Source of the DNA: Desulfobotulus sp. | GTDB lineage: Bacteria > Desulfobacterota > Desulfobacteria > Desulfobacterales > ASO4-4 | NCBI RefSeq assembly: GCF_034006065.1 | Contig: NZ_JAVETM010000001.1 | Location: 293,147-317,146, forward strand | Reading direction: 5' to 3' | DNA length: 24,000 nucleotides | In this document: positions 2,996-22,237 of the stretch, piece after piece | How positions within the stretch are numbered: the stretch's first letter is position 1 | Layout: each line of letters opens with the position of its first letter | Program-made: the position numbers and the translations under genes | Notes under the pieces: model-generated | What the model was told of the DNA's origin: nothing | Seen by the model: only the letters and a program-made list of their open reading frames with translations | Database searches by the model: none

Positions 2996-3024
2996 TTGAC
3001 ATGCGCCATAAAAACGATTATAAG
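2996..3024 (+). promoter_or_regulatory. Sigma70-type promoter for the proVWX-like operon
   Basis: TTGACA (2996-3001), a 17-nt spacer, then TATAAG (3019-3024). It sits in an AT-rich intergenic region about 80 nt upstream of ATG 3107. Confidence 0.5.
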
Positions 3025-3106
3025 TTCTTTTGCTCTGAATACATATGCCCTGGAAAAGTCCAGACTCCAGGGATTTTCCTTCTCTTTTTTCACAAACAGG
3101 AACCTT

Positions 3107-5159: not shown

Positions 5160-5182
5160 ACCAAAAAAAAGGAGATTTGCAC

Positions 5183-6977: not shown

Positions 6978-7410
6978 AGCGTAAAGCCCTGCCACTTCAC
7001 AGTAAATACCTGTACTTAAAGCCGATCCATTCTAAAAAAACAAAGAATGGACCCGGCTTGTCGCTTTACAAACAATGTTCCATGAACTAAAGTGTGTTAG
7101 GGATCATGGGCGGCAATTCATTAAAAAATGCCACGCCCTTTCCCCGCCTCCCCGCTCAGCGCCTGACAAGGATTCCAATACCCGGATTCGATCCAGCGTC
7201 TGTTTTCCTTAAAAAAAAAATTTGGCAAAACCCATCTGCAGGGATTCTGGCCTTGGCCCCAGCCCTTTTCTTCTGAAAACGCGCTTCCCTCTGGCCGGAT
7301 TTCTGCGGATCTTCCAAAACCCTCCAGAAAATTCAGACCCCAAAACCCAAGCGTCGGAATCCGGTTTTTTTCCGACCCCTAAGACCCGCACCCAAAAGAA
7401 GGAATCCGCC

Positions 7411-9135
7411 ATGCTCCATGCCTTCACCATCCGTCAGCGTATGACGGCCATCCTCATCCTTGTGGGGCTCATGCTCATCGGCATGTTCTGGGCCACCTTC
7501 CGTGCGGCCCACACAGCCCGCGACATTGGTACCCGAGAAACCGGCCATGTGATGCTCGAAGACCAGAAAGCCAAAATCCATGTGGCCACCCACTCTCTGG
7601 CCCTCGCCATGGGCAAGGTGGCGCAAGATATCCGGGATCCGGAAGAACGCATCCGGATCTTCCGGTTGATGCTCCAGGACATCCGCTTTGAGGATGACGA
7701 TTCCGGATATTTTTTCCTTTACCGGAATACCACCAACGTGGCCCTGCCCACCCGCCCAGACCTTGTGGGCAAGGATCTGCGGGATGCCAAAGATTCCAAT
7801 GGGGTCTACTATGTTCAGGCCCTGCAGGACGCCGCCCGCCGGGGCGGGGGTTTTGTCGAATATGTTTTTGACAAACCGGGTTTCGGCAACCAGCCCAAGC
7901 TTTCCTATTCCCAGCCCGTACCGGGTACGGATATGTGGCTGGGCACAGGCATCTACATCGATAACATTGCAAGGGAACAGCAGCGCATCGCCACAGACAT
8001 CAATCAGCGGGTCACAACCTACCTCTTCTGGCTCGCTGGCCTTGCCGGAGTTTTTGCCCTCCTCTTTTTCACCGTGGCCATTCTCACCACCCGCGAGGTT
8101 GTGGTTTCATTGAAACGTACGGCAAAACTGCTCCAGCACCTGGCCTCTGGCAACGGAGACCTCACCCACCGCATGCCCGAAGGCCGCAGGGATGAAATCG
8201 GTGAAATGTCCCTCTGGATCAACCGCTTCATCGGGCAGATCCACGGCATCATATCAAGCATCCGGGACCATGCGGAAAACCTCCGAACCGCTTCCTCCTC
8301 CCTGGGCCATGATTCCCAGGCCATGGCCAGAGGCACCGAAGCCTCGGCCACAGGCACCCAGTCTGTCACCCAGGCCGCCTCCACCATGAAAGACAACATG
8401 GGCAGCATTGCTTCGGCCATGGAAGAAACCGCCACCAACACTTCCATGGTGGCCGCAGCCACGGAAGAGATGACCAGCACCATTGATGAGATCGCAAAAA
8501 ATGCCGAAGAAGCCCGGAAAACCACGGGAAAAGCCGTACTGAAAGCTACCGAGACCTCGGAAAAGACCATCCGGCTCGGTGAGATTTCCAGGGAGGTGGG
8601 GAAGGTGACGGAAACCATATCCGAAATTTCCGCCCAGACCAATCTCCTTGCCCTTAACGCCACCATTGAAGCGGCCCGGGCCGGTGAGGCGGGGAAAGGT
8701 TTTGCCGTGGTTGCGGCCGAAATCAAGACCCTGGCCGAACAGACCGCCCGCGCCACAGAAGACATCCGCCGTATCATTACCCAGGCCCAGGCTCTGTCTT
8801 TGGACGTGGAAGAGGATGTGTCTCTGGTCACTGCATCCATTTCCGCCATTGATGACATTGTCAACGCCATTGCCACAGCTGTGGAAGAACAATCCGCAGC
8901 CACCCGGGAAATTTCCGGCAACGTGCTCCAGGCCTCCCAGGGCATCCAGGAAGTCAATGAAAACATGAGCGCCCTGCACCGCCTTGTGGGTGAAATCTAC
9001 AAGGACATTGACGCCGTGCGCAGCGCCACAGCGGACATGAGCGACACGGGCAGGGCCGTGGATACCAGCGCCCAGGATGTGGCCCGCATGGCGGGGGATC
9101 TGGAAAAACTGGTGGGTCGCTTCAAACTGAATTGA
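7411..9135 (+). CDS. Methyl-accepting chemotaxis protein with periplasmic single-Cache (sCache_2-like) sensor, HAMP and MCP signalling domains
   Basis: Domain order is TM1 ([16 protein letters not shown]), a Cache-like block (DDSGYFFLY...GKDL...DSNGVYYVQ...[12 protein letters not shown]...KLSY...[10 protein letters not shown]), TM2, HAMP, then the conserved MCP hairpin (...[37 protein letters not shown]...). Start is moved to ATG 7411 (AAGAAGGAA upstream); the TTG at 7222 adds a low-complexity extension. Confidence 0.9.
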
Positions 9136-9640: not shown

Positions 9641-10450
9641 ATGAAACGCAATTTCGGCAAAAAACTCATCATCGGCGCGGCCCTCTGCTGCCTTCCCTTC
9701 TCCGCCATGGCTCTGGAAGCTCTGGATGACAGCGCCCTCGGTGGCGTCACCGGTCAGGCCGGTGTGAGCATTGCTCTGGACGATGTGGTGATCTACATGA
9801 AGAGCATTGCAGATGTGACCTACATTGATACGGATGGTTTTGGAGGCGTTGATCGTGCTGGTATCATGATTGAGCACCAGACCGGTGGAGAAAAACTCAT
9901 CACTCTGGGCGCCATTGTGACCGATGATGTTTACGGTATCGATAAACTCAATGCCACATTCAACACCGACAATATCGGTATCCTCTCAAAAGCCGCCATC
10001 AATTCCAAAATGAATGAAATGGCAGCAGCTGCACAGCTTGCCGCCGGAGCTATTGACCAAGCCACATACGATGGCATAGCCGCTGCTGTGGATCCCAATG
10101 CAGTAAATTTTGATCCCACCAACGGATCTACCAGCAACTTTACCAATGGTATCTCCCCCCTGACCATCGATATCGGTGAGGCCGTTGCCCTTACCCAGGG
10201 CTGGACCTACAATACCAATGATACCATCCGAGGTGTAAAAGGCACCCATGTTGCCGGTGTCACAATTGGCCTGCCCACCGTGGAAATCAATACCTACTAC
10301 AACACTGTAGGCGAGCAGAAAGCAATCAAGCTTGTGGAAGTTGGTGATCATGTAGTGAATAAAGGCCACAATGAATTTATCACCATCAGAAAAACCGGTA
10401 ACGCCACCATGGCCATCCTCGGCGGCCGTCTGGAAATCGCTCCCCACTGA
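9641..10450 (+). CDS. Secreted protein, TGQAG-motif family paralog 1 (269 aa); candidate major subunit or cargo
   Basis: AGGAGG lies 8 nt upstream. Signal peptide MKRNFGKKLIIGAALCCLPFSAMA is followed by LEALDDSALGGVTGQAGVSIALDD. The protein is Thr/Asn/Gly/Ala-rich with no Cys after the signal peptide. Its N- and C-terminal segments resemble those of the proteins at 10556 and 18551. Confidence 0.85.
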   Translation: MKRNFGKKLIIGAALCCLPFSAMALEALDDSALGGVTGQAGVSIALDDVVIYMKSIADVTYIDTDGFGGVDRAGIMIEHQTGGEKLITLGAIVTDDVYGIDKLNATFNTDNIGILSKAAINSKMNEMAAAAQLAAGAIDQATYDGIAAAVDPNAVNFDPTNGSTSNFTNGISPLTIDIGEAVALTQGWTYNTNDTIRGVKGTHVAGVTIGLPTVEINTYYNTVGEQKAIKLVEVGDHVVNKGHNEFITIRKTGNATMAILGGRLEIAPH

Positions 10451-10489
10451 TGCAAATCCGGCTTAACCTCCAAGCCTGAATGCCAACGA

Positions 10490-10520
10490 AGCCCCCTCTC
10501 CTGACCGGGGAGGGGGCTTT
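10490..10520 (+). terminator. Strong hairpin with a weak U-tract after the first gene (partial terminator or attenuator)
   Basis: AGCCCCCTCTCC-tgacc-GGGGAGGGGGCT is a 12-bp stem (one G.U pair) followed only by TTT. It lies 40 nt after the stop at 10450 and 36 nt before the next ATG. Confidence 0.5.
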
Positions 10521-10555
10521 GCAACAAAAAAGCCTCGCCGGGGATCGCGACGACC

Positions 10556-11575
10556 ATGAAAATCCTTTGCCTGTTTTTTATCTGCCTCACGTGGCTCAGC
10601 CTCTGCGCCGCGCATCGCAGCGAAGCACTCCAGGCTATGGCGGATACGGATCTGGCCGCATGCACAGGACAGGCGGGCATTTCCATGGCCATTGCGGATC
10701 TGGTGGTCTATCATCATCAGGAAAACATCGCCTTTATCAGCAACCGCAAAATCGATGAAAATACCACTACCCAAACCCCGCTCACCCTCAGCAATACCCA
10801 AAGCCTTCTTACTCTGAATGCGGGCAGAACCGACATCAACGGCAATGGCAAAATTGATCCCATCACCTTGGACATCGGCATGCTTTCCGATCTGGAACGG
10901 CTCTGGAAGGAGCCCAACTGGCTGCCGGAAGATCAGTGGGAAATAATAGATGCCTTGCCCGCCGGTGTACTGGATCGCCCTGTAATCGCCCTTCGCGCTC
11001 CGGACTGGGACAGAAACCTTGAAATCCGCAACAATGGCATTTCCTTGAATGATGTGAATCTCGGTTCTTTCTCCCTTCAGGGCAGTAAGACCCAGGGGTG
11101 GGAGCTTTTTCTTTCCGCAGGCCAGATCATGAAAGTGACTGCCCCTGATGATCCTGATGATCCCAATATCCGCAAAGCGGGTATGGATTTTGAATTCGCC
11201 TTCCAAAAACACATTGAAGCCTTCACCTACAGCCCTTCCGAAAGCCAGACCCTTTCCTTTGACAATCTCTATTTTGCCAAAGACCTGACCTTTTCCGAGA
11301 CCAATGCTTCAGACATCACCGCCTCGGGTTTCTTCCGCCTGGGCAACATGCGGGAGGGCAAACCCCTCTCCATCGATATGGGCGTAACCACCGAAGGCAG
11401 AAGCCAAGCGACCCCTGTCTTAAGGCTGGACCTGAAAGATGCCAGCGGCTCCTTTGCCGTAGCCGGTATCCGGGACATCCAGGGAGCGGAAACCCGCAAC
11501 TTCGGCCCTGTCATTGCCGAAGGAATTCAGATTCATCATATGCGTCTGGAATTCCCCGGTCGGGGGACCCCATGA
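10556..11575 (+). CDS. Secreted protein, TGQAG-motif family paralog 2 (339 aa)
   Basis: Signal peptide MKILCLFFICLTWLSLCAA is followed by ...ALQAMADTDLAACTGQAGISMAIADLVVY. The motif occupies residues 28-39, the same register as in paralogs 1 and 4. There is no obvious SD sequence. Confidence 0.75.
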   Translation: MKILCLFFICLTWLSLCAAHRSEALQAMADTDLAACTGQAGISMAIADLVVYHHQENIAFISNRKIDENTTTQTPLTLSNTQSLLTLNAGRTDINGNGKIDPITLDIGMLSDLERLWKEPNWLPEDQWEIIDALPAGVLDRPVIALRAPDWDRNLEIRNNGISLNDVNLGSFSLQGSKTQGWELFLSAGQIMKVTAPDDPDDPNIRKAGMDFEFAFQKHIEAFTYSPSESQTLSFDNLYFAKDLTFSETNASDITASGFFRLGNMREGKPLSIDMGVTTEGRSQATPVLRLDLKDASGSFAVAGIRDIQGAETRNFGPVIAEGIQIHHMRLEFPGRGTP

Positions 11576-12573
11576 TCTCTGGTCTCACCCCGGAAAGAAG
11601 ACTTTGGCGAAAAAAGGCCCCCTCCCCCAAGGTCCCAGGGACTTTTTTCTGGGCCTTGTTTCTCATGCTTTCCCTGCCGGGTCTCAGCCTGGCCCAAGGG
11701 AATGGGCCTTCGGGTATTTTCGGCTTCTGTGATGGTCTGTTCAAAGAAGAGCAGAAAATCTTTTCCCTGGAAAAAGCCCCCCCCTTTCAAAGCAAAACGC
11801 CACAAAGTCCTTCGGCCATTTCGTCTCTGCCTGCTTCAGAAGAAAAGTCCCATACCTTCGCCCTCACCCAGAGCGAAAACCCGGTCTCTTCTTCCCCTTC
11901 TCCTGATCTTCTTCAGGCCAGCGCCCCCTTACAGGCCCTCTCCGACGGCGAGCTTCAGAACATCACCGCAGGCTCCATTGTGAATTTCACCATGGACGCA
12001 AGCCAGAATCTCGCCCGGATGGATCTGGATATGTACCTTGAAACGCACATGGAAATTGAAAAATTCCGTGCGGGCTATCACAACTACAATCCTGAGACCA
12101 GTCTGGGATGGGATCAGAGCTGGGATAAGGTGCGCTTCTATGGCGGGACTCTGGATGAAGAAAAGAATCCTTCAGATTTTTTCAAAGCCTATGGCCTGAC
12201 CCTTGTGGTGGAATATGAGGGTACAGAGAACAGCCGCAAGATTGCCCGTATTCTCCTGGGTTCCCCCCAGGTTTCGGGTAAAATCGATGCGCAGTTCAAC
12301 CACTTCTCCGGTGTCATCGATCAAGCGGTCAATGCCCATCTGAATGAATCCCAAGACTTAAACCCCTACCGCGTAAATCTTGGGCAGCAGACCCTTACTT
12401 TCAGCCAGGCCAATCAGGGACTTTTCCTCGGCCTGACCTTAAGCGGCGATCGCCCGGGCTTTGGCGTATTTGCGGGAAAACCCCTGGATGGCACAGGCGG
12501 TATTCTGGAAGCAGGCCGCTCAGACTGGTGGACCCAACCGGCGGGAAGCCTCTCCAAAGATTCAGCCCCCTGA
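11572..12573 (+). CDS. Secreted protein with an S/P-rich linker and an internal GG-leader-like motif (TGQAG-family paralog 3, divergent)
   Basis: ATGA start/stop overlap with the upstream gene. Hydrophobic signal ...FFWALFLMLSLPGLSLAQG, then a Ser/Pro-rich stretch of about 80 aa, then LQALSDGELQNITAGSIVNFTMD (residues 123-134). The start codon is uncertain. Confidence 0.65.
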   Translation: MISGLTPERRLWRKKAPSPKVPGTFFWALFLMLSLPGLSLAQGNGPSGIFGFCDGLFKEEQKIFSLEKAPPFQSKTPQSPSAISSLPASEEKSHTFALTQSENPVSSSPSPDLLQASAPLQALSDGELQNITAGSIVNFTMDASQNLARMDLDMYLETHMEIEKFRAGYHNYNPETSLGWDQSWDKVRFYGGTLDEEKNPSDFFKAYGLTLVVEYEGTENSRKIARILLGSPQVSGKIDAQFNHFSGVIDQAVNAHLNESQDLNPYRVNLGQQTLTFSQANQGLFLGLTLSGDRPGFGVFAGKPLDGTGGILEAGRSDWWTQPAGSLSKDSAP

Positions 12574-12684
12574 TCATAAGACTTTACAGCGCTTCCATGG
12601 GCTGCTACAAAGCAAAACATTGTTTCAAACACAAAAAGGCCCATTGAACCCTGATCGCCCCTAACCCGGAGCCTGGATCTCTCC

Positions 12685-13440
12685 ATGCACATCCTCGCCG
12701 CCTTTGTCATATTCCTTGCCTTTGCCAATGGTTTCCATCCCATCTCCGAAGAAAAGGAAAGTCACGCCGTTTTTGTGGTGGATCCGGATCAACGCATTGT
12801 GCTGCGTACCCCTGTGGTAACGGATGAGATCATCCAGTTTCGCCACCTGGTACGCCAGAACTTTGATTATTCCTGCGGGTCTGCGGCCCTGGCCACCCTG
12901 CTCAATGCTGCCATGGGCGAAAATCTCACGGAACGTCAGGTCATCCATGGTCTCATGGAATACGGAGACAAGGAGCAGATTGCCGCACGCAGAGCCTTTT
13001 CCCTTCTGGACATGAAACGCTTCGTCAATGTGCTGGGCTATGACGGCGCAGGCTATAAGGCAAAAATGGAAAACCTGCTCGATCCCCAGTACTGGCCTGC
13101 CATTGTTCCCATCAAAATCTTTGATTACCGTCATTTCGTCGTTTTTCGCGGAGCCTACGGCGGCCATGTCTTCATCGCCGACCCCTGGCGGGGAAACAGC
13201 AGCTACACGGAGGAACAGTTTGCGTCCATGTGGTATGACAATGTCATGTTTCTTGTTTCCAACGGCGAAAAAAAACATCCCAACCTCCTGCGCCTGCGCA
13301 CGGAAGACCTTCGCTATATCGACGAAGACACGGCCCGGTATTTTGTCTTTGACCAGGAAAAACCCTTTAACACCCCAAGGGACACCCAGGTGCCTGTCAA
13401 AGACGGCGTTCCCGCAGGGGGCTATTTTTATAAACCCTAG
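12685..13440 (+). CDS. Periplasmic stand-alone C39-like cysteine peptidase
   Basis: Signal peptide MHILAAFVIFLAFANG. C39 signature RQNFDYSCGSAALATLLN (Q58, C64; Cys codon 12874-12876), then ...DYRHFVVFRG..GHVFIADP (H150, D166). The Q-6-C and H-16-D spacings match what I recall for bacteriocin-processing C39 domains. Confidence 0.8.
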   Translation: MHILAAFVIFLAFANGFHPISEEKESHAVFVVDPDQRIVLRTPVVTDEIIQFRHLVRQNFDYSCGSAALATLLNAAMGENLTERQVIHGLMEYGDKEQIAARRAFSLLDMKRFVNVLGYDGAGYKAKMENLLDPQYWPAIVPIKIFDYRHFVVFRGAYGGHVFIADPWRGNSSYTEEQFASMWYDNVMFLVSNGEKKHPNLLRLRTEDLRYIDEDTARYFVFDQEKPFNTPRDTQVPVKDGVPAGGYFYKP

Positions 13441-13459
13441 AGTCTGAGGTCCGGAGATC

Positions 13460-14521
13460 ATGGTTTTTCGTCTTTTTCTTCTCATTCTTTTCTTCTTCTG
13501 CACAACAGCCCCCTCATGGGCGGAGAACGATCCGGAAATCCGGCTCCTTGAGGAGCGTCTCCAGGAGCTGGAGGCCTCCCTCAAACGCATGCAGGAAGAA
13601 AACGAGGCCCGCAGAACCCTTCAGAGTACAGCCGAAGAAAAGGCGGCTCAGGAAGAGGAAATCCTTTCCGCCGCGGGCAGGGATTACACCCTGATGCGGC
13701 CCGGACGCATGGGATTTGAATACAATTTCCGCTACTCCTACTACAGTTATGACCAGCTTGTGGAAGCCGGAAAAATCGAGCACAAGAGCAATCACAACAT
13801 TGAAAACAGCATGGTGGTGGAATATCCCCTGAAGCCCAATCTCACCCTGAGCGCAGATTTTCCCTTTGTCTTTAAAAGCGACAACAAATCCTCAGATGGC
13901 TCTTCCCGTCAGGTGTCCGATATCGGGGACTTTGTGCTGGGATTTCAGTATCAGCCCCTGAAATCCGGCGGAAAAATACCGACCACCATCCTTTCCCTCC
14001 GCGCCAGCCTGCCCGTGGGCCGCAGCCCCTATGACATCGATCCGGACAAGGAGATGGCCACCAGCTCCGGCACATACAGCCTCACCGCCGGGGCCAACTT
14101 CAGCAAGGTTTTTGATCCCATCATTGCCTATGGTGGACTGAGCTACAGCTATTATCTGCCGGAAAGCACCCGCTACCACGCCAAAGGCGTATCCTCACCG
14201 GAATATGTCTCTGAAGTGAACCGGGGAGAGCAGTTCGGATTCAGCGCCGGGTTTGGTTATGCCCTTTCTTACAGGCTCAACATCAACCTCAGTTATCAGT
14301 ACAGCCTCAGTATGCGCTCCAAATACACCTGGACCACCGATGAGACCCCGGAAAAATGGGAGACCCAGAGCCCCACATCCGCATCCTCAGTTTTCAGTAT
14401 CGGCACGGGCTGGCGCATCAGCAGCAAACGCACCATGAATGTGCGCCTTGGCATCGGCCTTACCAACAATGATCCGGACTTTACCCTGGCCATACGCCTG
14501 CCCTTTGAACTGGTCTTCTGA
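13460..14521 (+). CDS. Outer-membrane beta-barrel protein with an N-terminal coiled-coil segment
   Basis: Signal peptide MVFRLFLLILFFFCTTAPSWA. A charged heptad-like helix of about 55 aa follows (EIRLLEERLQELEASLKRMQEENEARR...EEKAAQEEE), then about 270 aa of alternating amphipathic strands ending ...AIRLPFELVF with a terminal Phe. Confidence 0.75.
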   Translation: MVFRLFLLILFFFCTTAPSWAENDPEIRLLEERLQELEASLKRMQEENEARRTLQSTAEEKAAQEEEILSAAGRDYTLMRPGRMGFEYNFRYSYYSYDQLVEAGKIEHKSNHNIENSMVVEYPLKPNLTLSADFPFVFKSDNKSSDGSSRQVSDIGDFVLGFQYQPLKSGGKIPTTILSLRASLPVGRSPYDIDPDKEMATSSGTYSLTAGANFSKVFDPIIAYGGLSYSYYLPESTRYHAKGVSSPEYVSEVNRGEQFGFSAGFGYALSYRLNINLSYQYSLSMRSKYTWTTDETPEKWETQSPTSASSVFSIGTGWRISSKRTMNVRLGIGLTNNDPDFTLAIRLPFELVF

Positions 14522-14576
14522 TGACAAAAAAAAGAGAGGCATCTTCATATTTTTCTTCAACAAAGAATTTCTTTTC

Positions 14577-16412
14577 ATGGAAACGTGTTTTGTGAAAAAC
14601 CATCCGCGCTGCCGCCCACTCACGAAACGGTCCGGGTTCGATTCAGCCTGCCTCTGGATCGTTGCCCTTGTCCTTTTTTGCCTGGTGCTTCGGCCTTTTT
14701 CCGCCGAAGCCAACTTCAATGAGCAGGTGGCCATCAGCACCAAGGCCATTTCCCTTGCCAATACCGTGACCGCAGACCCGCCGGGACTCATGTCCGTTCA
14801 TTACAACCCCGCAGGTCTCAGTCTTCTGGATGAGGGCAAGGTGTTCAGCAATGGTTTCACCCTGGCTCACATTGTCCGTACGGGACGCTTTCAGGAAGAT
14901 CCGAACTTCCCTGGTTTCATGGACACCTGGGGCCCGGGTAAACCTTACAATCCCGACTTTCCCAATGACCCTGACAGCGACCATGGCGGTCCGGACCCTC
15001 TCCGGGGGACAGAAGGCACAACCTCCGGCAACATTCTTTATGTGCCCTTTTATGGTCCCATCAGCCTCCCCGCCATCCCCGCACCCAACTTAGGTATTTC
15101 CCACAGAAGCCCAGGCTCCCGCTGGACCTTTGCCTATGCCAATTATGCGGCCTACGGCGGAGGGATTGAGCATAAGGATGCGGGCGACCCTTTGCGTTTC
15201 GGATGTAAGTCTTTGTATCTCCAGCACCTTATCTATGCAGCCCCTTCGGTGAGTTACCAGATTTCGGACACCCTTTCCGTGGGCGCCTCCATTGGCATGG
15301 GCCAAACCTCCATGGGCATTGCCATGGACCAGCGTTCTCCCAATGAGCTGGTGGCCCTCACCCGCGTCATCGGTGACGCCACAAGGGATCTTCACATTCC
15401 CGTGGTCTCAGACATGACCTTTCCCGCTCCCTGGCTGGGAGGCGGCCTGGGGCCCTATGAGCATGTGGCGAGCTTCAGGCTGGACATGAGAGACGATTAT
15501 TCCCCCAGTTTCAACCTAGGCCTCCTCTGGCAACCCCATCACCGCTTTTCCTTTGGCCTCGTTTACCAGAGCGAGACCCAGTCTGAAATGACAGGTAACT
15601 ATATTTTTCACTATTCGGAACAATTCCAGCGTCATATTGACTGGAACGGATCCACCTCCTACACCATGCAGGGAGCGGGTATTCTTGGCCTTCCCATCAA
15701 AGGGCTTCCCTTTCAGGCAGGGACGGTCACCACCACCCAGAGGTTTCCCCAGAGGGTGCAGGCGGGAATCATGGTCAAACCCTTTTCCCGCATCAAATGG
15801 CTCTTTGATGTCAACTGGACCAACTGGTCTGTCATCAAGGAAGACCGCCTTCAGTTTGATCAGCGCATCCATCTTCTTCAGCTTGTTAAACTTCTCGGTT
15901 ACACGGGCGGAGAAAGTACGCTTCTAGTGGAGCGCAATCTCAAAGACACCTGGAGCTTCAGCACAGGTCTTGAGTTCATGGTATCCGAGGCCTTAAGTCT
16001 GCGCCTTGGGTATGAAAAGCGGCCCACGTCCTTAAACTATGACCTCTTTGACGCCCTGTATTTTCTTCCGGAAAACAATTTTTACGGCACAGGCGCGGAA
16101 TTACGCTTAAAAAATGGGCTTACCATCGATCTCGGCATGGGGATTCTCATGGCAGATAAGATCAAGGTGGACAACAACCGTTCCACCAACATGAATTCCA
16201 CGGATTTCACGAAGATCGTATACAACCCCTATGCGGGTCTCAACTATGAGCAGGACACCACCATCTACCTTGCCTCCTTTACCATCACCATGCCCCTTGA
16301 GCTGCAGATGGAGCTTTTGGAGCAGAAAAAGGAGATGGCCTTAAAAGCCCTTTCCAAACTCAAAAAACTCTGGCCCTTTGGATCCAGAAAAGAAAGCACA
16401 AAAGCCCAGTGA
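14577..16412 (+). CDS. FadL/OmpP1/TodX-family outer-membrane channel, unusually long (611 aa) with a C-terminal helical tail
   Basis: The N-terminal region after the signal (LWIVALVLFCLVLRPFSAEA) reads ...AISLANTVTADPPGLMSVHYNPAGLSLL, a typical FadL-family opening. Later FadL-like blocks are present (LRLGYEKRPTS..., FYGTGAELRL). After the last strand comes the tail ELQMELLEQKKEMALKALSKLKKLWPF.... The start is uncertain: ATG 14577 has no clear SD, and GTG 14592 is an alternative. Confidence 0.7.
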   Translation: METCFVKNHPRCRPLTKRSGFDSACLWIVALVLFCLVLRPFSAEANFNEQVAISTKAISLANTVTADPPGLMSVHYNPAGLSLLDEGKVFSNGFTLAHIVRTGRFQEDPNFPGFMDTWGPGKPYNPDFPNDPDSDHGGPDPLRGTEGTTSGNILYVPFYGPISLPAIPAPNLGISHRSPGSRWTFAYANYAAYGGGIEHKDAGDPLRFGCKSLYLQHLIYAAPSVSYQISDTLSVGASIGMGQTSMGIAMDQRSPNELVALTRVIGDATRDLHIPVVSDMTFPAPWLGGGLGPYEHVASFRLDMRDDYSPSFNLGLLWQPHHRFSFGLVYQSETQSEMTGNYIFHYSEQFQRHIDWNGSTSYTMQGAGILGLPIKGLPFQAGTVTTTQRFPQRVQAGIMVKPFSRIKWLFDVNWTNWSVIKEDRLQFDQRIHLLQLVKLLGYTGGESTLLVERNLKDTWSFSTGLEFMVSEALSLRLGYEKRPTSLNYDLFDALYFLPENNFYGTGAELRLKNGLTIDLGMGILMADKIKVDNNRSTNMNSTDFTKIVYNPYAGLNYEQDTTIYLASFTITMPLELQMELLEQKKEMALKALSKLKKLWPFGSRKESTKAQ

Positions 16413-16444
16413 ACCTCTCCCAATTCTGAGTCAATGGAGTATGT

Positions 16445-17935
16445 ATGCCTTCTTTCCTCGTACAAGTCTTCTTTGTTTTCCTTGCTCTTGTTCTTCCCGT
16501 CGGCGGTCTTTGTCAGCCCAGCCTGCGCGTTACCGAAGAATTTTTCGGAATGCCCGAATCCGGTATCCAGATTTTCGGCCTCACGGCGGATGACCAGCTC
16601 AGCCATGTGGCCTATGCGGTGCAGGATGAAAAGGGTATGTTCGTTCGCATGGACAAAGAGGAGGGACCTCACTTTGAGTCCATCCGCAAAGGCACCCCGC
16701 TTTTCGGCCCCCAGGGCCATATCATGGTCTACGTAGGCTTCCGACAGGCCAAAAGCCATGTCTGGGTGAATGGGAAGGAAAAGGGGATTTACGATGGCGC
16801 AGACAGTTTTACCTTCAGCCCAACGGGTCAGCATCTGGCCTATCGCGTTGAAGTTAAAGGCCAGGGCCAGGCCGTGGTTTCCGGAGACAAACAAGGACCT
16901 TTTTTCCGGATGGTGGATCCGGAAAGCCTTGTCATGGCCCAGGACGGAGGCCTTGCCTATGTGGGGATGGACCCGGACAGAGGGGCGGTGCTCATGGTCA
17001 ATGGCAGGGAGGCCGGGATTTTTGAGGGGGTGCGGGAGCTACGCTTTTCCCCAGAAGGCCATTTTGCCTGTGCTGTGAAAAAAGATGGCCTGTGGCACCT
17101 TTTTCTGGAAAACACCATGGAAAAAGAAGGGTATGAGGGCATTCAGTACATTGGATTTTCCCCGGACAGTGAGAAAATCGCCCTTGTCATCCTCCGTAAG
17201 GGCAAACTCAGTGTGCGCATGGGAAAGGACACCCACAGATCCTGGGATACGGTGGGGCCTCCCCTCTTTTCTCCGGACAGCCAACGCCTTGCCTATCCCG
17301 CCAAACAGGGTGAGCGCTGGGCCATGGTGGTGGATGGAAAAAGGGGGGATCGCCACGATCTTCTGGGCCCGCCCCTCTTTTCTCCGGACAGTCAGCACAT
17401 CGCCTGGATGGCTGTGGAAAAAGATCACTCTTTTTATGTGGTGAACCACAAAAAACAGCCTGCCTATGAGACTGTGGACGGCTTTGCCTTTCATCCGCAA
17501 AAAGGCTTTGCCTACAGGGCCAGGCAAAAGGAAAAATGGCATCTTGTCACCGAGCTTGGGGAAGGCCAGGCCCATGATGGCGTCACGCCCCCCCTCTTCC
17601 ATGAAAACGGCCGTCTTCTCTTTGGCATTGCCGATGATCATCAGCAGCGGCTGGTGGTGGATGGGGTTCCCGGCCCTCCGGCGGATCAGATCAGCCCTGC
17701 GGTTTACAGTCCAGGAGGCCAGCATGTGGGATGCGCTGTGATTCTCGATAAAAAATGGTACCTGGATATGGATGGCCAGCGCACTCCCATTGAAAATATC
17801 ACCGCCTTTCTCAATCAGGCGCCGGTGCGGTTTATTGATGAAAACACCATGCAGGGGCTGGCTTACCAGCTTCCTGGGCCCCGTTTTCTGAAAATCTCCG
17901 CAACCCTTGAAAATTTCAAGGAAACCATTGAGTGA
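16445..17935 (+). CDS. Secreted beta-propeller-like repeat protein (PD40/TolB-like FSPDG repeats)
   Basis: GGAG lies 5 nt upstream. Signal peptide MPSFLVQVFFVFLALVLPVGGLC. There are about 10 repeats of roughly 40 aa carrying F/YSP(D/E/T/G)(G/S)xxhAY-type motifs (FSPTGQHLAY, FSPEGHFAC, FSPDSEKIAL, FSPDSQRLAY, FSPDSQHIAW, YSPGGQHVGC). Confidence 0.7.
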   Translation: MPSFLVQVFFVFLALVLPVGGLCQPSLRVTEEFFGMPESGIQIFGLTADDQLSHVAYAVQDEKGMFVRMDKEEGPHFESIRKGTPLFGPQGHIMVYVGFRQAKSHVWVNGKEKGIYDGADSFTFSPTGQHLAYRVEVKGQGQAVVSGDKQGPFFRMVDPESLVMAQDGGLAYVGMDPDRGAVLMVNGREAGIFEGVRELRFSPEGHFACAVKKDGLWHLFLENTMEKEGYEGIQYIGFSPDSEKIALVILRKGKLSVRMGKDTHRSWDTVGPPLFSPDSQRLAYPAKQGERWAMVVDGKRGDRHDLLGPPLFSPDSQHIAWMAVEKDHSFYVVNHKKQPAYETVDGFAFHPQKGFAYRARQKEKWHLVTELGEGQAHDGVTPPLFHENGRLLFGIADDHQQRLVVDGVPGPPADQISPAVYSPGGQHVGCAVILDKKWYLDMDGQRTPIENITAFLNQAPVRFIDENTMQGLAYQLPGPRFLKISATLENFKETIE

Positions 17936-17952
17936 AAAATCGGGTTTTTCAT

Positions 17953-17981
17953 TTGACCCTTGCATCTTTTTTTCATAAAGT
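17953..17981 (+). promoter_or_regulatory. Candidate sigma70-type promoter for module 2
   Basis: TTGACC (17953-17958), a 17-nt T-rich spacer, then TAAAGT (17976-17981). It would give a leader of about 560 nt containing the inverted repeat and all five aptamers. A second TTGACA at 18039-18044 has no acceptable -10. Confidence 0.35.
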
Positions 17982-18065
17982 GATCTTTGTTCACCATCCA
18001 GACAAAAAAAAGATCCGCGAGGCAGCGTTTTTTGATCTTTGACATCGGGAAAGGTTTCGCACGCA

Positions 18066-18119
18066 CCATGTGTGGCGCTGAAGAACCCCCTATTGCCGGG
18101 GCTTCAGCGCCACACATGG
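18066..18119. repeat. Perfect 18-bp inverted repeat (long hairpin or palindromic operator)
   Basis: CCATGTGTGGCGCTGAAG (18066-18083) is the exact reverse complement of CTTCAGCGCCACACATGG (18102-18119). Inside the 18-nt loop, CCCC/GGGG can add 4 more pairs. No U-tract follows on either strand. Confidence 0.8.
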
Positions 18120-18145
18120 AGGTAAAGGGGTCGTCGAAGCGATGC

Positions 18146-18207
18146 GCCAAACCATGGGCAACCATGGGACGGAAAGCCACGGGTCCCACAGGGACAGCCG
18201 GGCCGCC
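18146..18207 (+). promoter_or_regulatory. GEMM-I-like riboswitch aptamer, tandem unit R1
   Basis: GCCAAAC-CATGG-GCAA-CCATG-GGACGGAAAGCC-ACGG-[GTCCC-aca-GGGAC]-AGCCGGGCCGCC. It has a GNRA loop (GCAA) and is nearly identical to R4. Confidence 0.75.
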
Positions 18208-18218
18208 TCAATCCTCAA

Positions 18219-18290
18219 GCCAAACCGGAGGTAACTCCGGGACGGAAAGCCACGGATCCAGAACTTTACATCTGGACAGCCGGGTTGCAC
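18219..18290 (+). promoter_or_regulatory. GEMM-I-like riboswitch aptamer, tandem unit R2
   Basis: GCCAAAC-CGGAG-GTAA-CTCCG-GGACGGAAAGCC-ACGG-[ATCCAGA-actttaca-TCTGGAC]-AGCCGGGTTGCA. Both stems differ from R1 by compensatory changes. Confidence 0.75.
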
Positions 18291-18294
18291 CAAA

Positions 18295-18360
18295 GCCAAA
18301 CCGGGGGTAACCCCGGGACGGAAAGTCACGGATCCGCATGGTGCGGATGGCCGGGCCGCC
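18295..18360 (+). promoter_or_regulatory. GEMM-I-like riboswitch aptamer, tandem unit R3
   Basis: GCCAAAC-CGGGG-GTAA-CCCCG-GGACGGAAAGTC-ACGG-[ATCCGCA-tgg-TGCGGAT]-GGCCGGGCCGCC. It has its own second-hairpin sequence and is followed by a separate hairpin at 18360-18378. Confidence 0.7.
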
Positions 18361-18378
18361 TGCCGGAATTTCCGGCAG
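18360..18378 (+). promoter_or_regulatory. Hairpin immediately 3' of aptamer R3 (possible internal expression platform)
   Basis: CTGCCGG-aattt-CCGGCAG is a perfect 7-bp stem. Its left arm starts at the last nucleotide of R3, and it is followed by ATTTCA, which is not a convincing U-tract. Confidence 0.4.
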
Positions 18379-18384
18379 ATTTCA

Positions 18385-18446
18385 GCCAAACCATGGGCAA
18401 CCATGGGACGGAAAGCCACGGGTCCCACAGGGACAGCCGGGCCGCC
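18385..18446 (+). promoter_or_regulatory. GEMM-I-like riboswitch aptamer, tandem unit R4 (copy of R1)
   Basis: It has the same 62-nt sequence as R1 as far as I can align by eye and lies 239 nt downstream of R1. Confidence 0.75.
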
Positions 18447-18456
18447 TCCTTCTCAA

Positions 18457-18527
18457 GCCAAACCGGGGGTAACTCCGGGACGGAAAGCCACGGGTCCAGA
18501 ACTTTACATCTGGACAGCCGGGTTGCC
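18457..18527 (+). promoter_or_regulatory. GEMM-I-like riboswitch aptamer, tandem unit R5 (copy of R2)
   Basis: GCCAAAC-CGGGG-GTAA-CTCCG-GGACGGAAAGCC-ACGG-[GTCCAGA-actttaca-TCTGGAC]-AGCCGGGTTGCC. It differs from R2 at two stem positions. Its end lies 10 nt before the SD AAAGGAG and 23 nt before ATG 18551. Confidence 0.75.
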
Positions 18528-18550
18528 TGTAGTACAGAAAGGAGTCTTCC

Positions 18551-19021
18551 ATGAGCAAGCTTCGTTTCCTCCTGGTTTTCTGCACCATGACGGCAATCAC
18601 CCTGTCCACGGCCTCTGCCGGACTGATTGCCATGACAGAAACCGAAATGCATCATGTGACCGCCCAGGCTGGTGTTTTCATCGATGTGGACAAGGTCCGC
18701 TTTGATTCCGAAATGAAAACCCTTAGTTACGGCAGCGATGCCACCGGATGGATCAGCCTCAATGACGTGAGGATTTCCACCTTCGTCAACAGCGGCAAAC
18801 CCATTGAGGTGGGCATGGTTACCGAATACAACCCCTACGAGGGCCGTACCATGGAAATGATGAAAATCGACTTTACGGATGTGGAAATCCGCATGGACGA
18901 ACTTCTCATCGGCTCCATCCGCGTGGGTCCCCGTCCGGGGGAAGGGCCAAGCTTCGGGAGCATCGGCATCACCGGGTTTCACGCAAACATGTCAGGGAAC
19001 GTGCGCATATGGACCCGCTGA
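18551..19021 (+). CDS. Small secreted protein, TGQAG-motif family paralog 4 (156 aa)
   Basis: AAAGGAG lies 6-7 nt upstream. Signal peptide MSKLRFLLVFCTMTAITLSTASA is followed by GLIAMTETEMHHVTAQAGVFIDVD, with the motif at residues 28-39. Its C-terminus (...GFHANMSGNVRIWTR) resembles that of paralog 1 (...GNATMAILGGRLEIAPH). Confidence 0.85.
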   Translation: MSKLRFLLVFCTMTAITLSTASAGLIAMTETEMHHVTAQAGVFIDVDKVRFDSEMKTLSYGSDATGWISLNDVRISTFVNSGKPIEVGMVTEYNPYEGRTMEMMKIDFTDVEIRMDELLIGSIRVGPRPGEGPSFGSIGITGFHANMSGNVRIWTR

Positions 19022-19197
19022 GGTTCTGTGCCTGGACGCACCCCTTTACCTCCTCCTTTTTCCCCATGTCAGAAGTGCTGGAAATACCAAAGTACCGCAT
19101 CCTTTCCATGCCATTCCAACCCTTCTCCCTTTCCCGATCTGACCCATAACCCCTTTTTAGGCGGCACCCCATGCCCCGGAAACCGCAGGATTGTCCC

Positions 19198-20061
19198 ATG
19201 CAACCCGCTTTTATCTTGATTTTGTTGCTTTTTCCATTTTGGTTTTCCCCTGTTTCGGCCCAGGCCGCGCCCTTCCTTGCGCCCGGTCAGATCACCGGAA
19301 CAGCCGGGCCCGCGGATCCGCCGGAACAAGGGCTTGCAAAGGGCATGGTCAGCCTTTCCCTCTTTACCCAGAAAAATGAATCGCCCCTGGGAAGGGAACG
19401 TTTTGCATGGATAGATCCGGAGGATGAAAACCAGGAAGAACGCCACAGAGCACGAAAATGGCGCTCCATCTATGACATGCAGGGTCTGAGCCTGAGGGGT
19501 GCCTATGCCTTTTCTGCAGTCTCCGCCTATTTCCTGGTTGGGATGGCGCAAACGGACATCACCTTTTCCTACAGGGATGAAACCAGAAAATATCAGTCTT
19601 CCAGCGCTTTTTATGACGAAAGCACCCGCTTCCGGGATGAAAGCCATCTTTTTTTCGGTGGTGGTCTCACCGCAGCCATGGCCCGCTGGCAACCCAATCC
19701 CGATACACGCATCGCCCTGGATGCGGATCTTTCTTATCGCTACCACGCCTTAAACCCCGAAGACCAGAACAGTCGAAGCTGGAGTTCTGTACTCCACGAA
19801 ATCCAAGGAGCCATGACCTTAGGCCTCATGATGGAAAAATGGACACCCTTCACAGGCCTTCGCATCAGCCACATCAGCGGCCAAATGACCTATGAGGACA
19901 AAAAAGAGGGGATCAGGGTCAGCAAAAGCATTGAGGCGGGAAAGGATATTGGCTATACCTTCGGCATTCGCTACCGCGCCCTGCCCTGGCTGGATCTGAC
20001 CCTTGCCTCCCGCTACGGGGATGAAAGCGGATATCACCTGGAATGCGCCTTTGTTTTCTGA
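19198..20061 (+). CDS. Small outer-membrane beta-barrel protein (about 287 aa)
   Basis: AGGA lies 7 nt before ATG 19198; the alternative ATG 19171 has a poorer SD. Signal peptide MQPAFILILLLFPFWFSPVSAQA, alternating-strand pattern, and a C-terminus of ...GYHLECAFVF with terminal Phe. Confidence 0.7.
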   Translation: MQPAFILILLLFPFWFSPVSAQAAPFLAPGQITGTAGPADPPEQGLAKGMVSLSLFTQKNESPLGRERFAWIDPEDENQEERHRARKWRSIYDMQGLSLRGAYAFSAVSAYFLVGMAQTDITFSYRDETRKYQSSSAFYDESTRFRDESHLFFGGGLTAAMARWQPNPDTRIALDADLSYRYHALNPEDQNSRSWSSVLHEIQGAMTLGLMMEKWTPFTGLRISHISGQMTYEDKKEGIRVSKSIEAGKDIGYTFGIRYRALPWLDLTLASRYGDESGYHLECAFVF

Positions 20062-20086
20062 CTGTCCCCAAAGGAGAATCCCAACC

Positions 20087-22237
20087 ATGCAAACTCTTTC
20101 CGGCAAAATACGGTATTTATCCGGATTTCTGCTGATTTTCTGTTTCTGCACCGGCGCCTTTGCCCAGGCAAAGATCAGCGGAGTGCTGCGCTGGCCAGGC
20201 AGCAGCATACGATCGGTCACAGGCAACAGCGACCATCTCATTCACACCCATGGCAATCTTCTACGGATATTTCAGAGAACGGATGACACGCTTCTTGCCG
20301 CCGTCCCCATCGCCCTTCAGGAAGGCCTGCGCGGCCTTGCCCATGCGCCGGATCAGAATCGTATTTACCTGGCCTGTGGCACGGATGGTCTGCGCATCCT
20401 CAACCTTGAAAATCCCACACACCCTGTGGTGACAGCCTACGACATCAATCCGCAAAATGCCGGAAAAAAAGACGCAAGTGGCCGGTATATCGCCCATACC
20501 TTTGCCCCCATGGGCCTCTTTTACCTGGAAAAACGCCTCTATGTGGCGGATTTCATGTATGGCCTCCGGGTTTTTGATGTCAGCATTCCCGAAGAGCCGA
20601 AGGAAATCGCAGCATATCGCCAGGGCACTGGGGATGCATCCGGCGGTTATCTCCAGGTTTTTGTGCACCGGGAAGCAGGACGGACCCTGATCTCGGTTCT
20701 GGATAAATACCACGGCCTCCACCTTTTCGATGCAGCGGACCAGCAGGCCGGAGACGCTGAAAAAAAATGGACGCCCGCAGCTAGCTTTGATATGCGTTCC
20801 AAAACCTATTATGGTCAGATTTCCCTGGTCACTGGCCTCTTTGCAGAAGGTCCCAGGGTTTTTGTAACAGACGAGGAAAACGGGCTGACCATCCTCCACC
20901 TTTTCAATGAATCCCAGCAGAGGGACTCTTTAAAAATTGTCAAGGAGGGCCAGTGTAAAACCCCTGGAAAGGCCATGGACCTTGTTGTGGATACCCATCT
21001 TCAGCGGGCTTTCATCGCAGACACGGAAAAAGGCCTTTCCGTTGTGGGTCTTGAATCCCTCTTTGACAATGATCCCGCAACCCGTGTGCAGGACAGCGAC
21101 TTCAAAGGCGCAGAAAGCCGCGCGGATGATCTCGGGGGCAGCCACAGCCTCTGGAAAGATCCCATGGAAAATGCCCTCTACCTTGCTTCCTATGCCAAAG
21201 ATCTCAGTCGTATCCGTCTCGGGTCGCCGCAGATAGAAAAAACCTTTCCGCCAGCTCTGGATTTTCGCCAGATCCAACGGCAAGGATCCACCCTCATCCT
21301 TTCGGACCACGGTCATTTAAGGGGGTTTCGCGTCATGGACATCACCCATATGCTTGAGCCAGATTCCGATGCAGCCTATTTTCCAAGGCAACTGGCGGAA
21401 AAAGGAACCCAGGCCCCGGCCCAGGCTCTCCGGGTTTCCGGAAACCGCCTTTTCACCGCAGAAGGGCCAAAGGGCCTGGGCGTCTATGATCTCACGGATC
21501 CGGCTGCGCCCCTTTTTCTTGCCCAGATTACAGCCCAGGAAATTCCGGGGCTTGACGATGTGCGGGATGTGGTCATCCGCGATGCCCTCGCTTTCTGCCT
21601 CATTCAGGGAAAGGGGATTGCGGTTCTTGATCTGGCCAATCCCGCTCAGCCTGTGCAGAAAAACCTGATTTCCGAGTACGACCAGGCCGTGGGACTTTTT
21701 CTGGATGCCAGCACCCTCTGGATCGCAGACAGACAAAAGGGACTTGTCGCCCTTTCCGTTACCCATCCTGAAACGCCCGAAAAAATCCGTAGCCTGGCCC
21801 TCACAGCCCCCCAAGCTCTCTGGGCGGATGAAACGCGGGTTCTTGTGGCCGAAGGACCCCATGGGCTTTTTGTTTATGAAAAAACAAGCGGCCTTTCTTC
21901 CCAGGTGGCCCTGAAGGACGGGGCCGAAGCTGCCCATGTTTTTGGCCTGAATCATTTTGCCTTTGTGTCCTGTGGGCAAAAGGGCGTGCAGATGATCGAC
22001 CTCACAGCCTCCCAAGGTCCTGAGACCGTAGCCTCGCTGGACAGCTATGGAAAAACCCTTGCTGGCTTAGGGCTCAACCAGGATCTGTACATGGCGGAAG
22101 CCACAGGTGGGCTTGCGGTTTTGCGCTTTGTACTCGGAGACGAAGCCTCCCCAGCCCCCCTGCCCAGCATCCGGACCAGTTCATCTTCCTGCTTTCTGGA
22201 CAGCCTGATTCATGGGAAAAAGGGGATCCGGCCATGA
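20087..22237 (+). CDS. LVIVD-repeat beta-propeller protein, secreted (716 aa)
   Basis: AGGAG lies about 10 nt upstream of ATG 20087. Signal peptide MQTLSGKIRYLSGFLLIFCFCTGAFAQA. LVIVD-type units recur: LYVADFMYGLRVFDVSIPEEPKEI, AFIADTEKGLSVVGL, LFTAEGPKGLGVYDLTDPAAP, AFCLIQGKGIAVLDLANPAQP, LWIADRQKGLVALSVTHPETPEKI, VLVAEGPHGLFVYE, AFVSCGQKGVQMIDLT, LYMAEATGGLAVLRF. Confidence 0.8.
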   Translation: MQTLSGKIRYLSGFLLIFCFCTGAFAQAKISGVLRWPGSSIRSVTGNSDHLIHTHGNLLRIFQRTDDTLLAAVPIALQEGLRGLAHAPDQNRIYLACGTDGLRILNLENPTHPVVTAYDINPQNAGKKDASGRYIAHTFAPMGLFYLEKRLYVADFMYGLRVFDVSIPEEPKEIAAYRQGTGDASGGYLQVFVHREAGRTLISVLDKYHGLHLFDAADQQAGDAEKKWTPAASFDMRSKTYYGQISLVTGLFAEGPRVFVTDEENGLTILHLFNESQQRDSLKIVKEGQCKTPGKAMDLVVDTHLQRAFIADTEKGLSVVGLESLFDNDPATRVQDSDFKGAESRADDLGGSHSLWKDPMENALYLASYAKDLSRIRLGSPQIEKTFPPALDFRQIQRQGSTLILSDHGHLRGFRVMDITHMLEPDSDAAYFPRQLAEKGTQAPAQALRVSGNRLFTAEGPKGLGVYDLTDPAAPLFLAQITAQEIPGLDDVRDVVIRDALAFCLIQGKGIAVLDLANPAQPVQKNLISEYDQAVGLFLDASTLWIADRQKGLVALSVTHPETPEKIRSLALTAPQALWADETRVLVAEGPHGLFVYEKTSGLSSQVALKDGAEAAHVFGLNHFAFVSCGQKGVQMIDLTASQGPETVASLDSYGKTLAGLGLNQDLYMAEATGGLAVLRFVLGDEASPAPLPSIRTSSSSCFLDSLIHGKKGIRP

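Follow-up and report, generated by a model that had tools for sequence, protein, structure and literature searches.

The subject of this study is a gene cluster of Desulfobotulus sp. that lies in a stretch of 24,000 nucleotides (nt) of contig NZ_JAVETM010000001.1 (assembly GCF_034006065.1, positions 293,147 to 317,146 of the forward strand), called the window in the following. Between positions 9641 and 16412, genes for exported subunit proteins are followed by those for a C39 cysteine peptidase (FilB), a FapF-like outer-membrane barrel (FilC) and a FadL-like protein (FilD); coordinates are collected in Table 1. Four proteins of the cluster, termed P1 to P4, carry a short motif behind a Sec signal peptide. 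This post-signal segment of 15 residues, predicted to be helical, is probably the recognition site of the neighbouring FilB, a putative leader peptidase facing the periplasm.

All four proteins open with an n-region that is basic or short; a hydrophobic core and then an AxA-type site follow. Signal peptides and sites were read by eye (AMA/L, SEA/L, ASA/G and SLA/Q, with the slash marking the cut). In P1, P2 and P4 the site is followed by the pattern [LM]xx[LM]x[DE]xx[LM]xxVT[GA]Q; with the sites as read, the motif therefore starts about one residue past the predicted signal-peptidase cut. A sequence-only reading of the window, made before any database search, had placed a core of 12 residues at positions 28-39 of three of the proteins, and the translations agree: the core is LDDSALGGVTGQ in P1, MADTDLAACTGQ in P2 and MTETEMHHVTAQ in P4, position 9722 being codon 28 of P1 and position 18667 codon 39 of P4. 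The leader-like segment as a whole comprises residues 25-39 of P1 (nt 9713-9757, with the core at nt 9722-9757 and the signal peptide at residues 1-24), residues 25-39 of P2 (nt 10628-10672) and residues 24/25-39 of P4 (nt 18623-18667); the leader-core peptide sequence is LEALDDSALGGVTGQAGVSIALDD. In P3, whose start overlaps the stop of P2 by 4 nt, the motif LQALSDGELQNITAGS occupies residues 120-135, after the signal peptide and about 80 residues of S/P-rich linker, and the segment itself (LQALSDGELQNITAG) residues 120-134 (nt 11929-11973). Leader positions are numbered back from the putative cut after Q, which is position -1.

For comparison, a one-genome-per-species collection was scanned for the peptidase and yielded at least 592 FilB-type loci; the best 80, all retrieved through FilB, were examined and are cited by L numbers where needed. 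The sequence-only reading had tentatively named the family DUF6160, and the suggestion was right, as P1, P2 and P4 reach 46.3, 29.6 and 40.3 bits with its Pfam profile (PF19657, gathering score 27 bits). P3 is without a Pfam match, and the consensus of its family reaches only E 0.04 with DUF6160. By hhalign, only its residues 120-163, an N-terminal module of about 40 residues, align with the family (probability 84%, E 7e-6). P3 is therefore homologous to the others over this module only. Of the earlier claim that four paralogs share the motif after a Sec signal, the presence of the motif in all four proteins holds, whereas their paralogy is valid for the N-terminal module alone. Isolated motif peptides of 24 residues match positions 24-46 of the DUF6160 profile (E 4e-7 to 3e-4), and thus the motif carries much of the family signal. 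In the open reading frames (ORFs) of the 80 related loci, 71 matches to TGQxG[VILM]x[IVLMF] fall within the first 130 residues and a single one in the remaining 289,097 residues. On the strength of the family matches, the peptide matches and this positional count, a chance occurrence of the motif is excluded.

The C-termini are less uniform. The segment G-x-hydrophobic-x-I-x-x-H/R, which the sequence-only reading had ascribed to all the paralogs, is common to P1 and P4 and is widely kept as ...EIAPH (...LGGRLEIAPH in P1). The P2 subfamily has its own C-terminus, FGPxAIDGI..RLEFPGRG, kept in many loci as FGPxAIDGIxVHRL / EFPGRG, and P3 has neither type. P1 is probably the major subunit; P2, P3 and P4 are proposed to be minor or specialised subunits.

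The sequence-only reading had made no mention of a periplasm-facing C39 peptidase with intact catalytic residues in the same operon. FilB scores 56.2 bits with PF03412 (threshold 22) and reaches E 2.3e-61 with NCBIfam FilB and 4.6e-34 with FapD. Its profile matches LahT150 (6MPZ) at 1e-11 and also PCAT1. Residues Q58, C64, H150 and D166 are invariant across 20 homologs, which points to an active enzyme in need of a substrate. FilC, a putative secretion channel, is related to the FapF crystal structures 5O65 and 5O67 (phmmer E 8e-19 over residues 146-349). FilD has an alternative upstream start at 14439.

Conservation, tandem-unit proteins and predicted structure

The three genes FilB, FilC and FilD are adjacent in 58 of the 62 loci with enough flank, and one to five motif-bearing ORFs were found in 53 of the 66 loci with at least 3 kb upstream. 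The cluster is found again in Desulfobacterota, Geomonas, Smithella, Kistimonas, Litoribrevibacter and Acinetobacter. In Desulforapulum autotrophicum (L010) the order of the window is kept gene for gene, including a P4-like gene after the gene for X, a conserved exported accessory protein. Orthologs of X come after FilD in many loci, and P4 orthologs lie downstream of X in L010, L055, L059, L011, L025 and L042.

In all 99 homologs of P1, nearly all of them from Desulfobacterota metagenomes, the motif stands after a Sec-type signal peptide, and the N-termini are near-identical (...ASALExMxDxxMxxVTGQAGVSIAVDDVVIY). A profile of the P1 family found 859 representatives in 1.84 billion proteins; this is thus a real but not a large family. 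A DUF6160 protein of 375 residues (P0023) is listed in EukProt under the eukaryote Chilomastix cuspidata and probably comes from bacteria that contaminated the transcriptome. The logo, built from 69 unique motif sequences, has T and Q in 100% and G/A in 99% of them. The hydrophobic positions are occupied by V/I/A/M at -4 (92%), L/M at -7 (97%), M/I/L/V at -12 (97%) and L/M at -15 (77%), and S/T is found at -11 in 64% and D/E at -10 in 80%. The AxA signal-peptidase site directly precedes position -15.

Most of the 31 P3-like orthologs read LSDxELxxITG[EQSA]GFSxF straight after the signal peptide, on bodies that are unrelated to DUF6160, which indicates that the N-terminal module is portable. 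For P3 and two orthologs, 25-95 residues separate the motif from the signal peptide, and the motif should thus be able to act as an internal site. The P3-like family is without a Pfam or NCBIfam model and has its own motif, LSDxELxxITGxGFSxFT ... GWDQxW; its genes are usually the first or the last among the subunit genes (e.g. L013 9087-9950 and L010 9214-9981).

Eight natural proteins consist of tandem DUF6160 units, each protein having one signal peptide and one leader-like segment. In all eight, positions 1-18 of the hidden Markov model (HMM), the leader-like part, are present once only, behind the signal peptide, and in most of the proteins the internal units start at HMM positions 19-23. 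An invariant G stands three residues past the ...EIAPH of the previous unit in all eight proteins, the units being joined as ...EIAPH-xxx-G(V/I/M)D(I/L)xxDD. The unit boundary is placed in this way at the invariant G, two residues after Q, and is consistent with the cut that the alignment in the sequence-only reading would imply. Since the segment is carried once and the internal units begin past Q, the leader-like segment appears to be an N-terminal extension outside the fold. Among the observations that put it there, which also include the predicted helix and the portability and internal place of the motif in P3-like proteins, the tandem proteins weigh most. The fusions also suggest that units can sit head to tail and pack in this manner. 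Polymerising subunits had been offered earlier as a speculation; it fits both these fusions and the report that in Acinetobacter sp. Tol 5 FilA is the monomer of the Fil fimbriae, which are long and curved (PMC3498257).

In an AlphaFold2 (AF2) model of P1, with a predicted local distance difference test (pLDDT) score of 80.8, residues 30-37 form a helix and beta strands start from residue 42. The motif helix has a pLDDT of about 60, lower than the rest of the protein, although no other part of the sequence is as conserved, a combination that is typical of a linear motif bound by a partner. The P4 model also has a helix, at residues 30-39, at an overall pLDDT of 65.7, a low confidence with which it is not usable for a fold search. 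A Foldseek search of the PDB with the P1 model gave no meaningful match (best template modelling score 0.18), and the fold of P1 is therefore unclassified.

Possible roles of the motif

The scheme that we propose has, taken as a whole, an even chance of being right in our judgement. Sec would export each precursor and signal peptidase I would cut at the AxA site, and this cut would expose a second leader of 15 residues, [LM]-x-x-[LMIV]-[ST]-[DE]-x-x-[LM]-x-x-[VI]-T-[GA]-Q, as an amphipathic helix. We infer that the periplasm-facing FilB binds the helix by way of its hydrophobic positions -4, -7, -12 and -15 and cuts it; the scissile bond would be at or beside T-[GA]-Q and the mature N-terminus would read x-G-V-S-I. 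Cleavage would precede export, in which the mature subunit would leave through the FapF-like FilC channel and the FadL-like FilD would take part. Outside, subunits may stack head to tail, with the processed N-terminus next to the ...EIAPH C-terminus of the neighbour, and the c-di-GMP (cyclic di-GMP) riboswitches described below would set the amount of subunit made. The leader function is supported by the register of the motif, as -4/-7/-12/-15 corresponds to the hydrophobic positions that C39 domains read in double-glycine leaders (-4/-7/-12 taken from the LahT150 study, PMC6363468), and by a cluster which joins DUF6160 subunits with a C39 peptidase, a FapF-like barrel and a FadL-like protein.

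A possible parallel comes from the Pseudomonas Fap system. Rouse et al. (PMC5557850) found the peptidase FapD to be periplasmic and its catalytic Cys to be required for secretion of FapC; FapE was the only Fap protein to lose its N-terminus. A 2025 paper says of FapD only that it 'modifies Fap proteins'. We compared four intact fap operons and one frameshifted assembly, with the N-terminus of FapE legible in five of five. After the signal peptide, FapE of these five loci reads ETFKPIELKDHELATLRGRY, SEMFRPTELSDGELAQLRGRY or ...RQLSDNELGVQRGRF; the similar motif directly after the signal peptide is ELKDHELATLRGRY, ELSDGELAQLRGRY or QLSDNELGVQRGRF, and a peptide of the FapE N-terminus is ETFKPIELKDHELATLRGRYVMPG. 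FapA has an internal motif, ELSDGDFANISSGAGIS, and a small Halomonas ORF a similar one, NDGALDQIRGRF. By eye, the motifs of FapE and FapA resemble that of P3 in the window (ALSDGELQNITAG).

Several observations weigh against the motif as a second leader. The pair at -2/-1 is GQ or AQ (GR in FapE and variable in P3-like proteins) and never GG, GA or GS; the S1 pocket of FilB would consequently have to differ from that of known C39 enzymes. No curated double-glycine-leader model matched. Scans of the motif peptides against NCBIfam and Pfam, with E-values up to 10, returned only DUF6160, FilA and FapE, apart from Lactococcin with E 0.18 for the P3 consensus. From the double-glycine likeness that the sequence-only reading had noticed, the hydrophobic register at -4/-7/-12/-15 persists, while the characteristic residue pair and a leader model are missing. 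With no GG and with its place after a Sec signal, the motif is not a classical double-glycine leader. By chance alone, 23% of unrelated ORFs contain the loose hydrophobic pattern, and the resemblance counts only when the peptidase next to it, the predicted helix and the boundary seen in the fusions are considered with it. Conservation also continues beyond the putative cut (xGVSIAxDD), which we take for the strand that opens the mature unit; an N-terminal element that is kept would give the same picture. Furthermore, 13 of the 66 loci have no adjacent motif-bearing gene. In L074-L076, L078, L080 (Marinobacter), L034, L045, L047 and L068, neither HMM nor regular-expression searches found a motif gene within 10 kb of FilB-FilC-FilD; the substrates are either encoded elsewhere or too divergent for these searches. 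As to the Fap proteins, the DUF6160 and P3 N-terminal HMMs gave nothing significant (FapA was marginal with E 0.007 among 13 sequences) and hhalign of FapE with P3 reached a probability of only 44%. With these weak scores the Fap parallel is a lead and not a demonstrated homology. The first FapE peptide in the table of Rouse et al. lies at residue 72, far past the motif, which is compatible with a cut at the motif without locating it there.

Instead of being removed, the motif might be a retained outer-membrane targeting signal, comparable to N22 of CsgA, that docks on FilC, FilD or X, while FilB cuts another target such as the periplasmic linker of FilC or P3 only. Its position at the mature N-terminus, conserved across subunit classes, would suit such a signal, as would the conservation that runs through the putative cut site and the one motif copy per tandem-unit protein, which a targeting signal predicts. 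Rouse et al. also weighed a FapF-targeting sequence in FapE, and FapF itself as a substrate of FapD. However, it would be left unexplained why the motif agrees exactly with the -4/-7/-12 register that C39 domains read, the run of small residues T-[GA]-Q / x-G resembles a protease site, and in P3 the motif is internal, behind the linker of about 80 residues. Targeting and cleavage are moreover compatible, since the double-glycine leaders of substrates of ATP-binding cassette transporters that contain a peptidase (PCATs) do both. We consider targeting without removal rather unlikely, with a minor but real chance.

It is improbable in our view that the motif is just the structural element with which the DUF6160 fold or a polymer interface begins, such as a donor strand or helix, and that its likeness to a leader is coincidental. 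The motif does lie inside the Pfam model, at positions 24-46, and this explanation would go well with the frequency of the loose pattern by chance (the 23% given above) and with the missing leader HMM matches. The internal units of the eight tandem proteins, however, are without the motif and start at the G past Q, the motif of P1 is the part with the lowest AF2 confidence despite being the most conserved, and P3-like proteins share it on an otherwise unrelated body. Lower still do we rate a docking site, without any proteolysis, for a periplasmic chaperone or regulator (X or a FapA-like protein) that holds subunits unfolded before export. X is conserved beside FilD, and FapA, reported as unprocessed, carries the similar internal motif ELSDGDFANISSGAGIS; but X is absent from Acinetobacter and Kistimonas loci that keep the motif, whereas FilB, through which all loci were retrieved, is the sole partner in every locus and belongs to the known readers of such helices. 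Such a role is thus very improbable. Recognition by FilB remains the reading that we prefer.

Other candidates were rejected. We gave up the idea that FilB uses the invariant Gln as a ligase of the transglutaminase or sortase kind, because the subunits have no invariant Lys and because an acyl-enzyme formed at the cut would hold the leader alone. A Fap-like amyloid was dropped as well, the subunits being without Q/N-rich repeats and predicted to be folded.

c-di-GMP riboswitches and accompanying genes

A c-di-GMP-I riboswitch aptamer precedes the P1 gene, and five aptamers of this class stand in tandem before P4, where they had first been seen as repeats between 17935 and 18551. They lie at 18137-18211, 18209-18292, 18286-18364, 18386-18444 and 18448-18531. 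Those at 18209-18292 (60.7 vs 35 bits) and 18448-18531 (62.5 vs 59) are above the gathering score; the three others reach 48.6-57.1 bits (E 1e-9 to 1e-12), which is below the thresholds of the best-scoring variant models. The types are mixed, comprising RF01051, the GGC variant RF03167 and the UAU variant RF03168 of Rfam clan CL00126, and the variants may serve different ligands or cooperative switching. To our knowledge, five aptamers in a row are unusual. An aptamer before a P1-like gene is also present in L005, L010, L013 and L018. Riboswitches stand before P1-, P2- and P4-like genes of related loci; the P4-like gene of L010 is preceded by three in tandem, and at gathering score none was found in L011, L030 and L079. 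The riboswitches tie the fibre to cyclic-dinucleotide signalling, and this fits a biofilm or adhesion fibre that is switched by cyclic dinucleotides.

X, an outer-membrane barrel and an LVIVD propeller accompany the cluster in several Desulfobacterales loci. Adjoining the cluster in the window is a gene for an AMIN/HEAT-like protein (22234-23862). Upstream of the cluster (53-868, 2966-6040, 7222-9135), the translations point to a second gene for a FadL-like outer-membrane protein, truncated at the edge of the window, and also to a glycine-betaine ATP-binding cassette (ABC) transporter of the ProVWX type, UppP and a methyl-accepting chemotaxis protein.

Table 1. Features of the cluster in the window, followed by related features of other loci and proteins (aa, amino acids)
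Feature	Position	Strand	Basis
c-di-GMP-I (GEMM-I) riboswitch aptamer, leader of P1 gene	9509..9594	+	Rfam RF01051, 58.7 vs 35 bits
P1, DUF6160 subunit, 269 aa	9641..10450	+	Pfam DUF6160 E 5.4e-12; 99 homologs
P2, DUF6160 subunit, 339 aa, C-terminus ...RLEFPGRGTP	10556..11575	+	Pfam DUF6160 E 8.7e-7, 29.6 bits
P3, 333 aa, no Pfam family	11572..12573	+	31 orthologs in related loci
Stand-alone C39 cysteine peptidase like FilB, 251 aa, with a hydrophobic signal or anchor at the N-terminus	12685..13440	+	Pfam Peptidase_C39 E 4e-15
FilC/FapF-like outer-membrane barrel, signal peptide and N-terminal coiled-coil segment	13460..14521	+	NCBIfam FilC 2.4e-52, FapF 1.3e-26
FilD-like, OmpP1/FadL/TodX family (outer membrane)	14574..16412	+	Pfam Toluene_X 5.7e-34; NCBIfam FilD 5.9e-90
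X, conserved exported accessory protein, PD40/TmcD-like repeats	16445..17935	+	weak PD40 and TmcD_fam matches
Five tandem c-di-GMP-I-class aptamers before P4	18137..18531	+	Rfam RF01051, RF03167, RF03168
P4, minimal DUF6160 subunit, 156 aa, C-terminus ...SGNVRIWTR	18551..19021	+	Pfam DUF6160 E 3.9e-10
Small outer-membrane beta-barrel protein	19171..20061	+	weak OMP_b-brl match; orthologs at the same place in L005, L010, L013, L018, L052
LVIVD-repeat beta-propeller protein, distal cluster end	20003..22237	+	Pfam LVIVD 5e-11; orthologs in 13 of 80 loci
Riboswitches of related Desulfobacterales loci	L010 7202-7297, 8171-8250, 15614-15941; L018 4957-5045, 6939-7029; L005 7178-7260; L013 7348-7444		
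Motif-bearing ORFs of fap loci	L082 5946-6698, 2546-2980; L086 5251-5979, 2612-3052; L081 6978-7766, 3298-3648; L083 5043-5849		
Tandem DUF6160 proteins, 3 units: P0358, P0369, P0410, P0425			
Tandem DUF6160 proteins, 2 units: P0385, P0386, P0431, P0423			

Comparison with known systems

The closest known relative is the Fil system of Acinetobacter (FilA-FilD; NCBIfam NF050077-NF050080). Locus L079 is a true FilABCD locus that passes all four NCBIfam cut-offs, with the same gene set and order as the window and the same N-terminal motif, its FilA reading AMA/MQAMDDASLGATTGQDGINIG. Based on the shared gene set, the synteny and the motif in this locus, the window is a distant and more elaborate surface-fibre system of the Fil type, and it is also related, as a cousin, to Fap, the amyloid secretion system of Pseudomonas. 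The window stays below the NCBIfam cut-offs (FilA 33.7/220, FilB 207.6/475, FilC 178.5/630, FilD 302.1/970); it is therefore homologous to Acinetobacter Fil but not its equivalog, and the two belong to different named families. In contrast to the one adjacent FilA-like gene of Acinetobacter, the window has four subunit classes together with X, the outer-membrane protein and the LVIVD protein, and its subunit genes are under c-di-GMP riboswitches, none of which were found at gathering score in L079. A literature search on DUF6160, Fil pili and periplasmic C39 peptidases with FadL or a pilus gave nothing on mechanism, and no paper was found on the motif or on its relation to the peptidase. DUF6160 and FilA-D are already catalogued as families.

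With the double-glycine leaders of bacteriocins, ComC and lanthipeptides (PCAT or AMS systems, exemplified by LahT150 and PCAT1), the window segment shares an amphipathic helix with hydrophobic residues at -4/-7/-12 (and -15), Ser/Thr in position -11, small residues where the cut lies and a cognate C39 peptidase with the Q/C/H/D set encoded alongside. The differences concern place and cargo. The leader follows a Sec signal and would be read in the periplasm instead of the cytoplasm, and the peptidase is not fused to an ABC transporter. Position -1 is Gln (Arg in FapE) and not Gly, Ala or Ser; the pairs at -2/-1 are GQ, GQ, AQ and AG in the window, and G/A followed by Q in 100% of the family logo. 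The acidic residue is at -10 and not at -8, and the cargo is a fibre subunit of 130-300 residues and not a peptide.

In curli (type VIII secretion), N22 of CsgA, an N-terminal segment of the mature protein, directs the Sec-exported subunit to the CsgG channel; there is no peptidase, and N22 stays in the mature subunit. The window resembles curli in the proposed N-terminal targeting of a Sec-exported fibre subunit, with no relation in sequence or family.

The Fap system resembles the window in FapD, a stand-alone C39 peptidase of the periplasm with a catalytic Cys on which secretion depends, in a FapF-type barrel preceded by a coiled coil, in Sec-exported substrates, and in FapE, which loses its N-terminus on maturation and has a start of the ELSDGELAQLRGRY type after the signal peptide. 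Unlike Fap, the window has subunits predicted to be folded alpha/beta proteins and the additional FadL-like FilD. No match to the FapB/C amyloid repeat (PF27129) was found among the window proteins, whereas true fap operons show this family, and the window is thus not a Fap system. Its scores of 117.6 for FapD (cut-off 330) and 93.4 for FapF (cut-off 700) indicate clear homology but not equivalogs.

Periplasmic C39 peptidases are essential for Fap secretion, and the question of their substrate and of the sequence that they recognise dates from 2017. The helix of 15 residues between the signal-peptidase site and T-[GA]-Q is a candidate site, found from Desulfobacterota to FilA of Acinetobacter and with a putative counterpart in FapE, and the motif makes the question of the FapD/FilB substrate directly testable. 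If FilB cuts there, C39/double-glycine processing, known from cytoplasmic export coupled to ABC transporters, would also take place in the periplasm and on folded fibre subunits, substrates would become predictable from genomes (at least 592 FilB-type loci), and the peptidase might be a target in biofilms of Acinetobacter and Pseudomonas. Tentatively, and with a confidence a little short of even, we propose that Fil and Fap share an undescribed two-leader export, in which a Sec signal is followed by a double-glycine-type leader. If true, removal of the leader would free an N-terminal strand for head-to-tail fibres under c-di-GMP control, and hydrophobic-[ST]-[DE]-x-x-[LM]-x-x-hydrophobic-x-[GA]-x would be the recognition site of FapD too. 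The periplasmic C39 peptidase together with the FapF-type channel would then be the counterpart of a PCAT.

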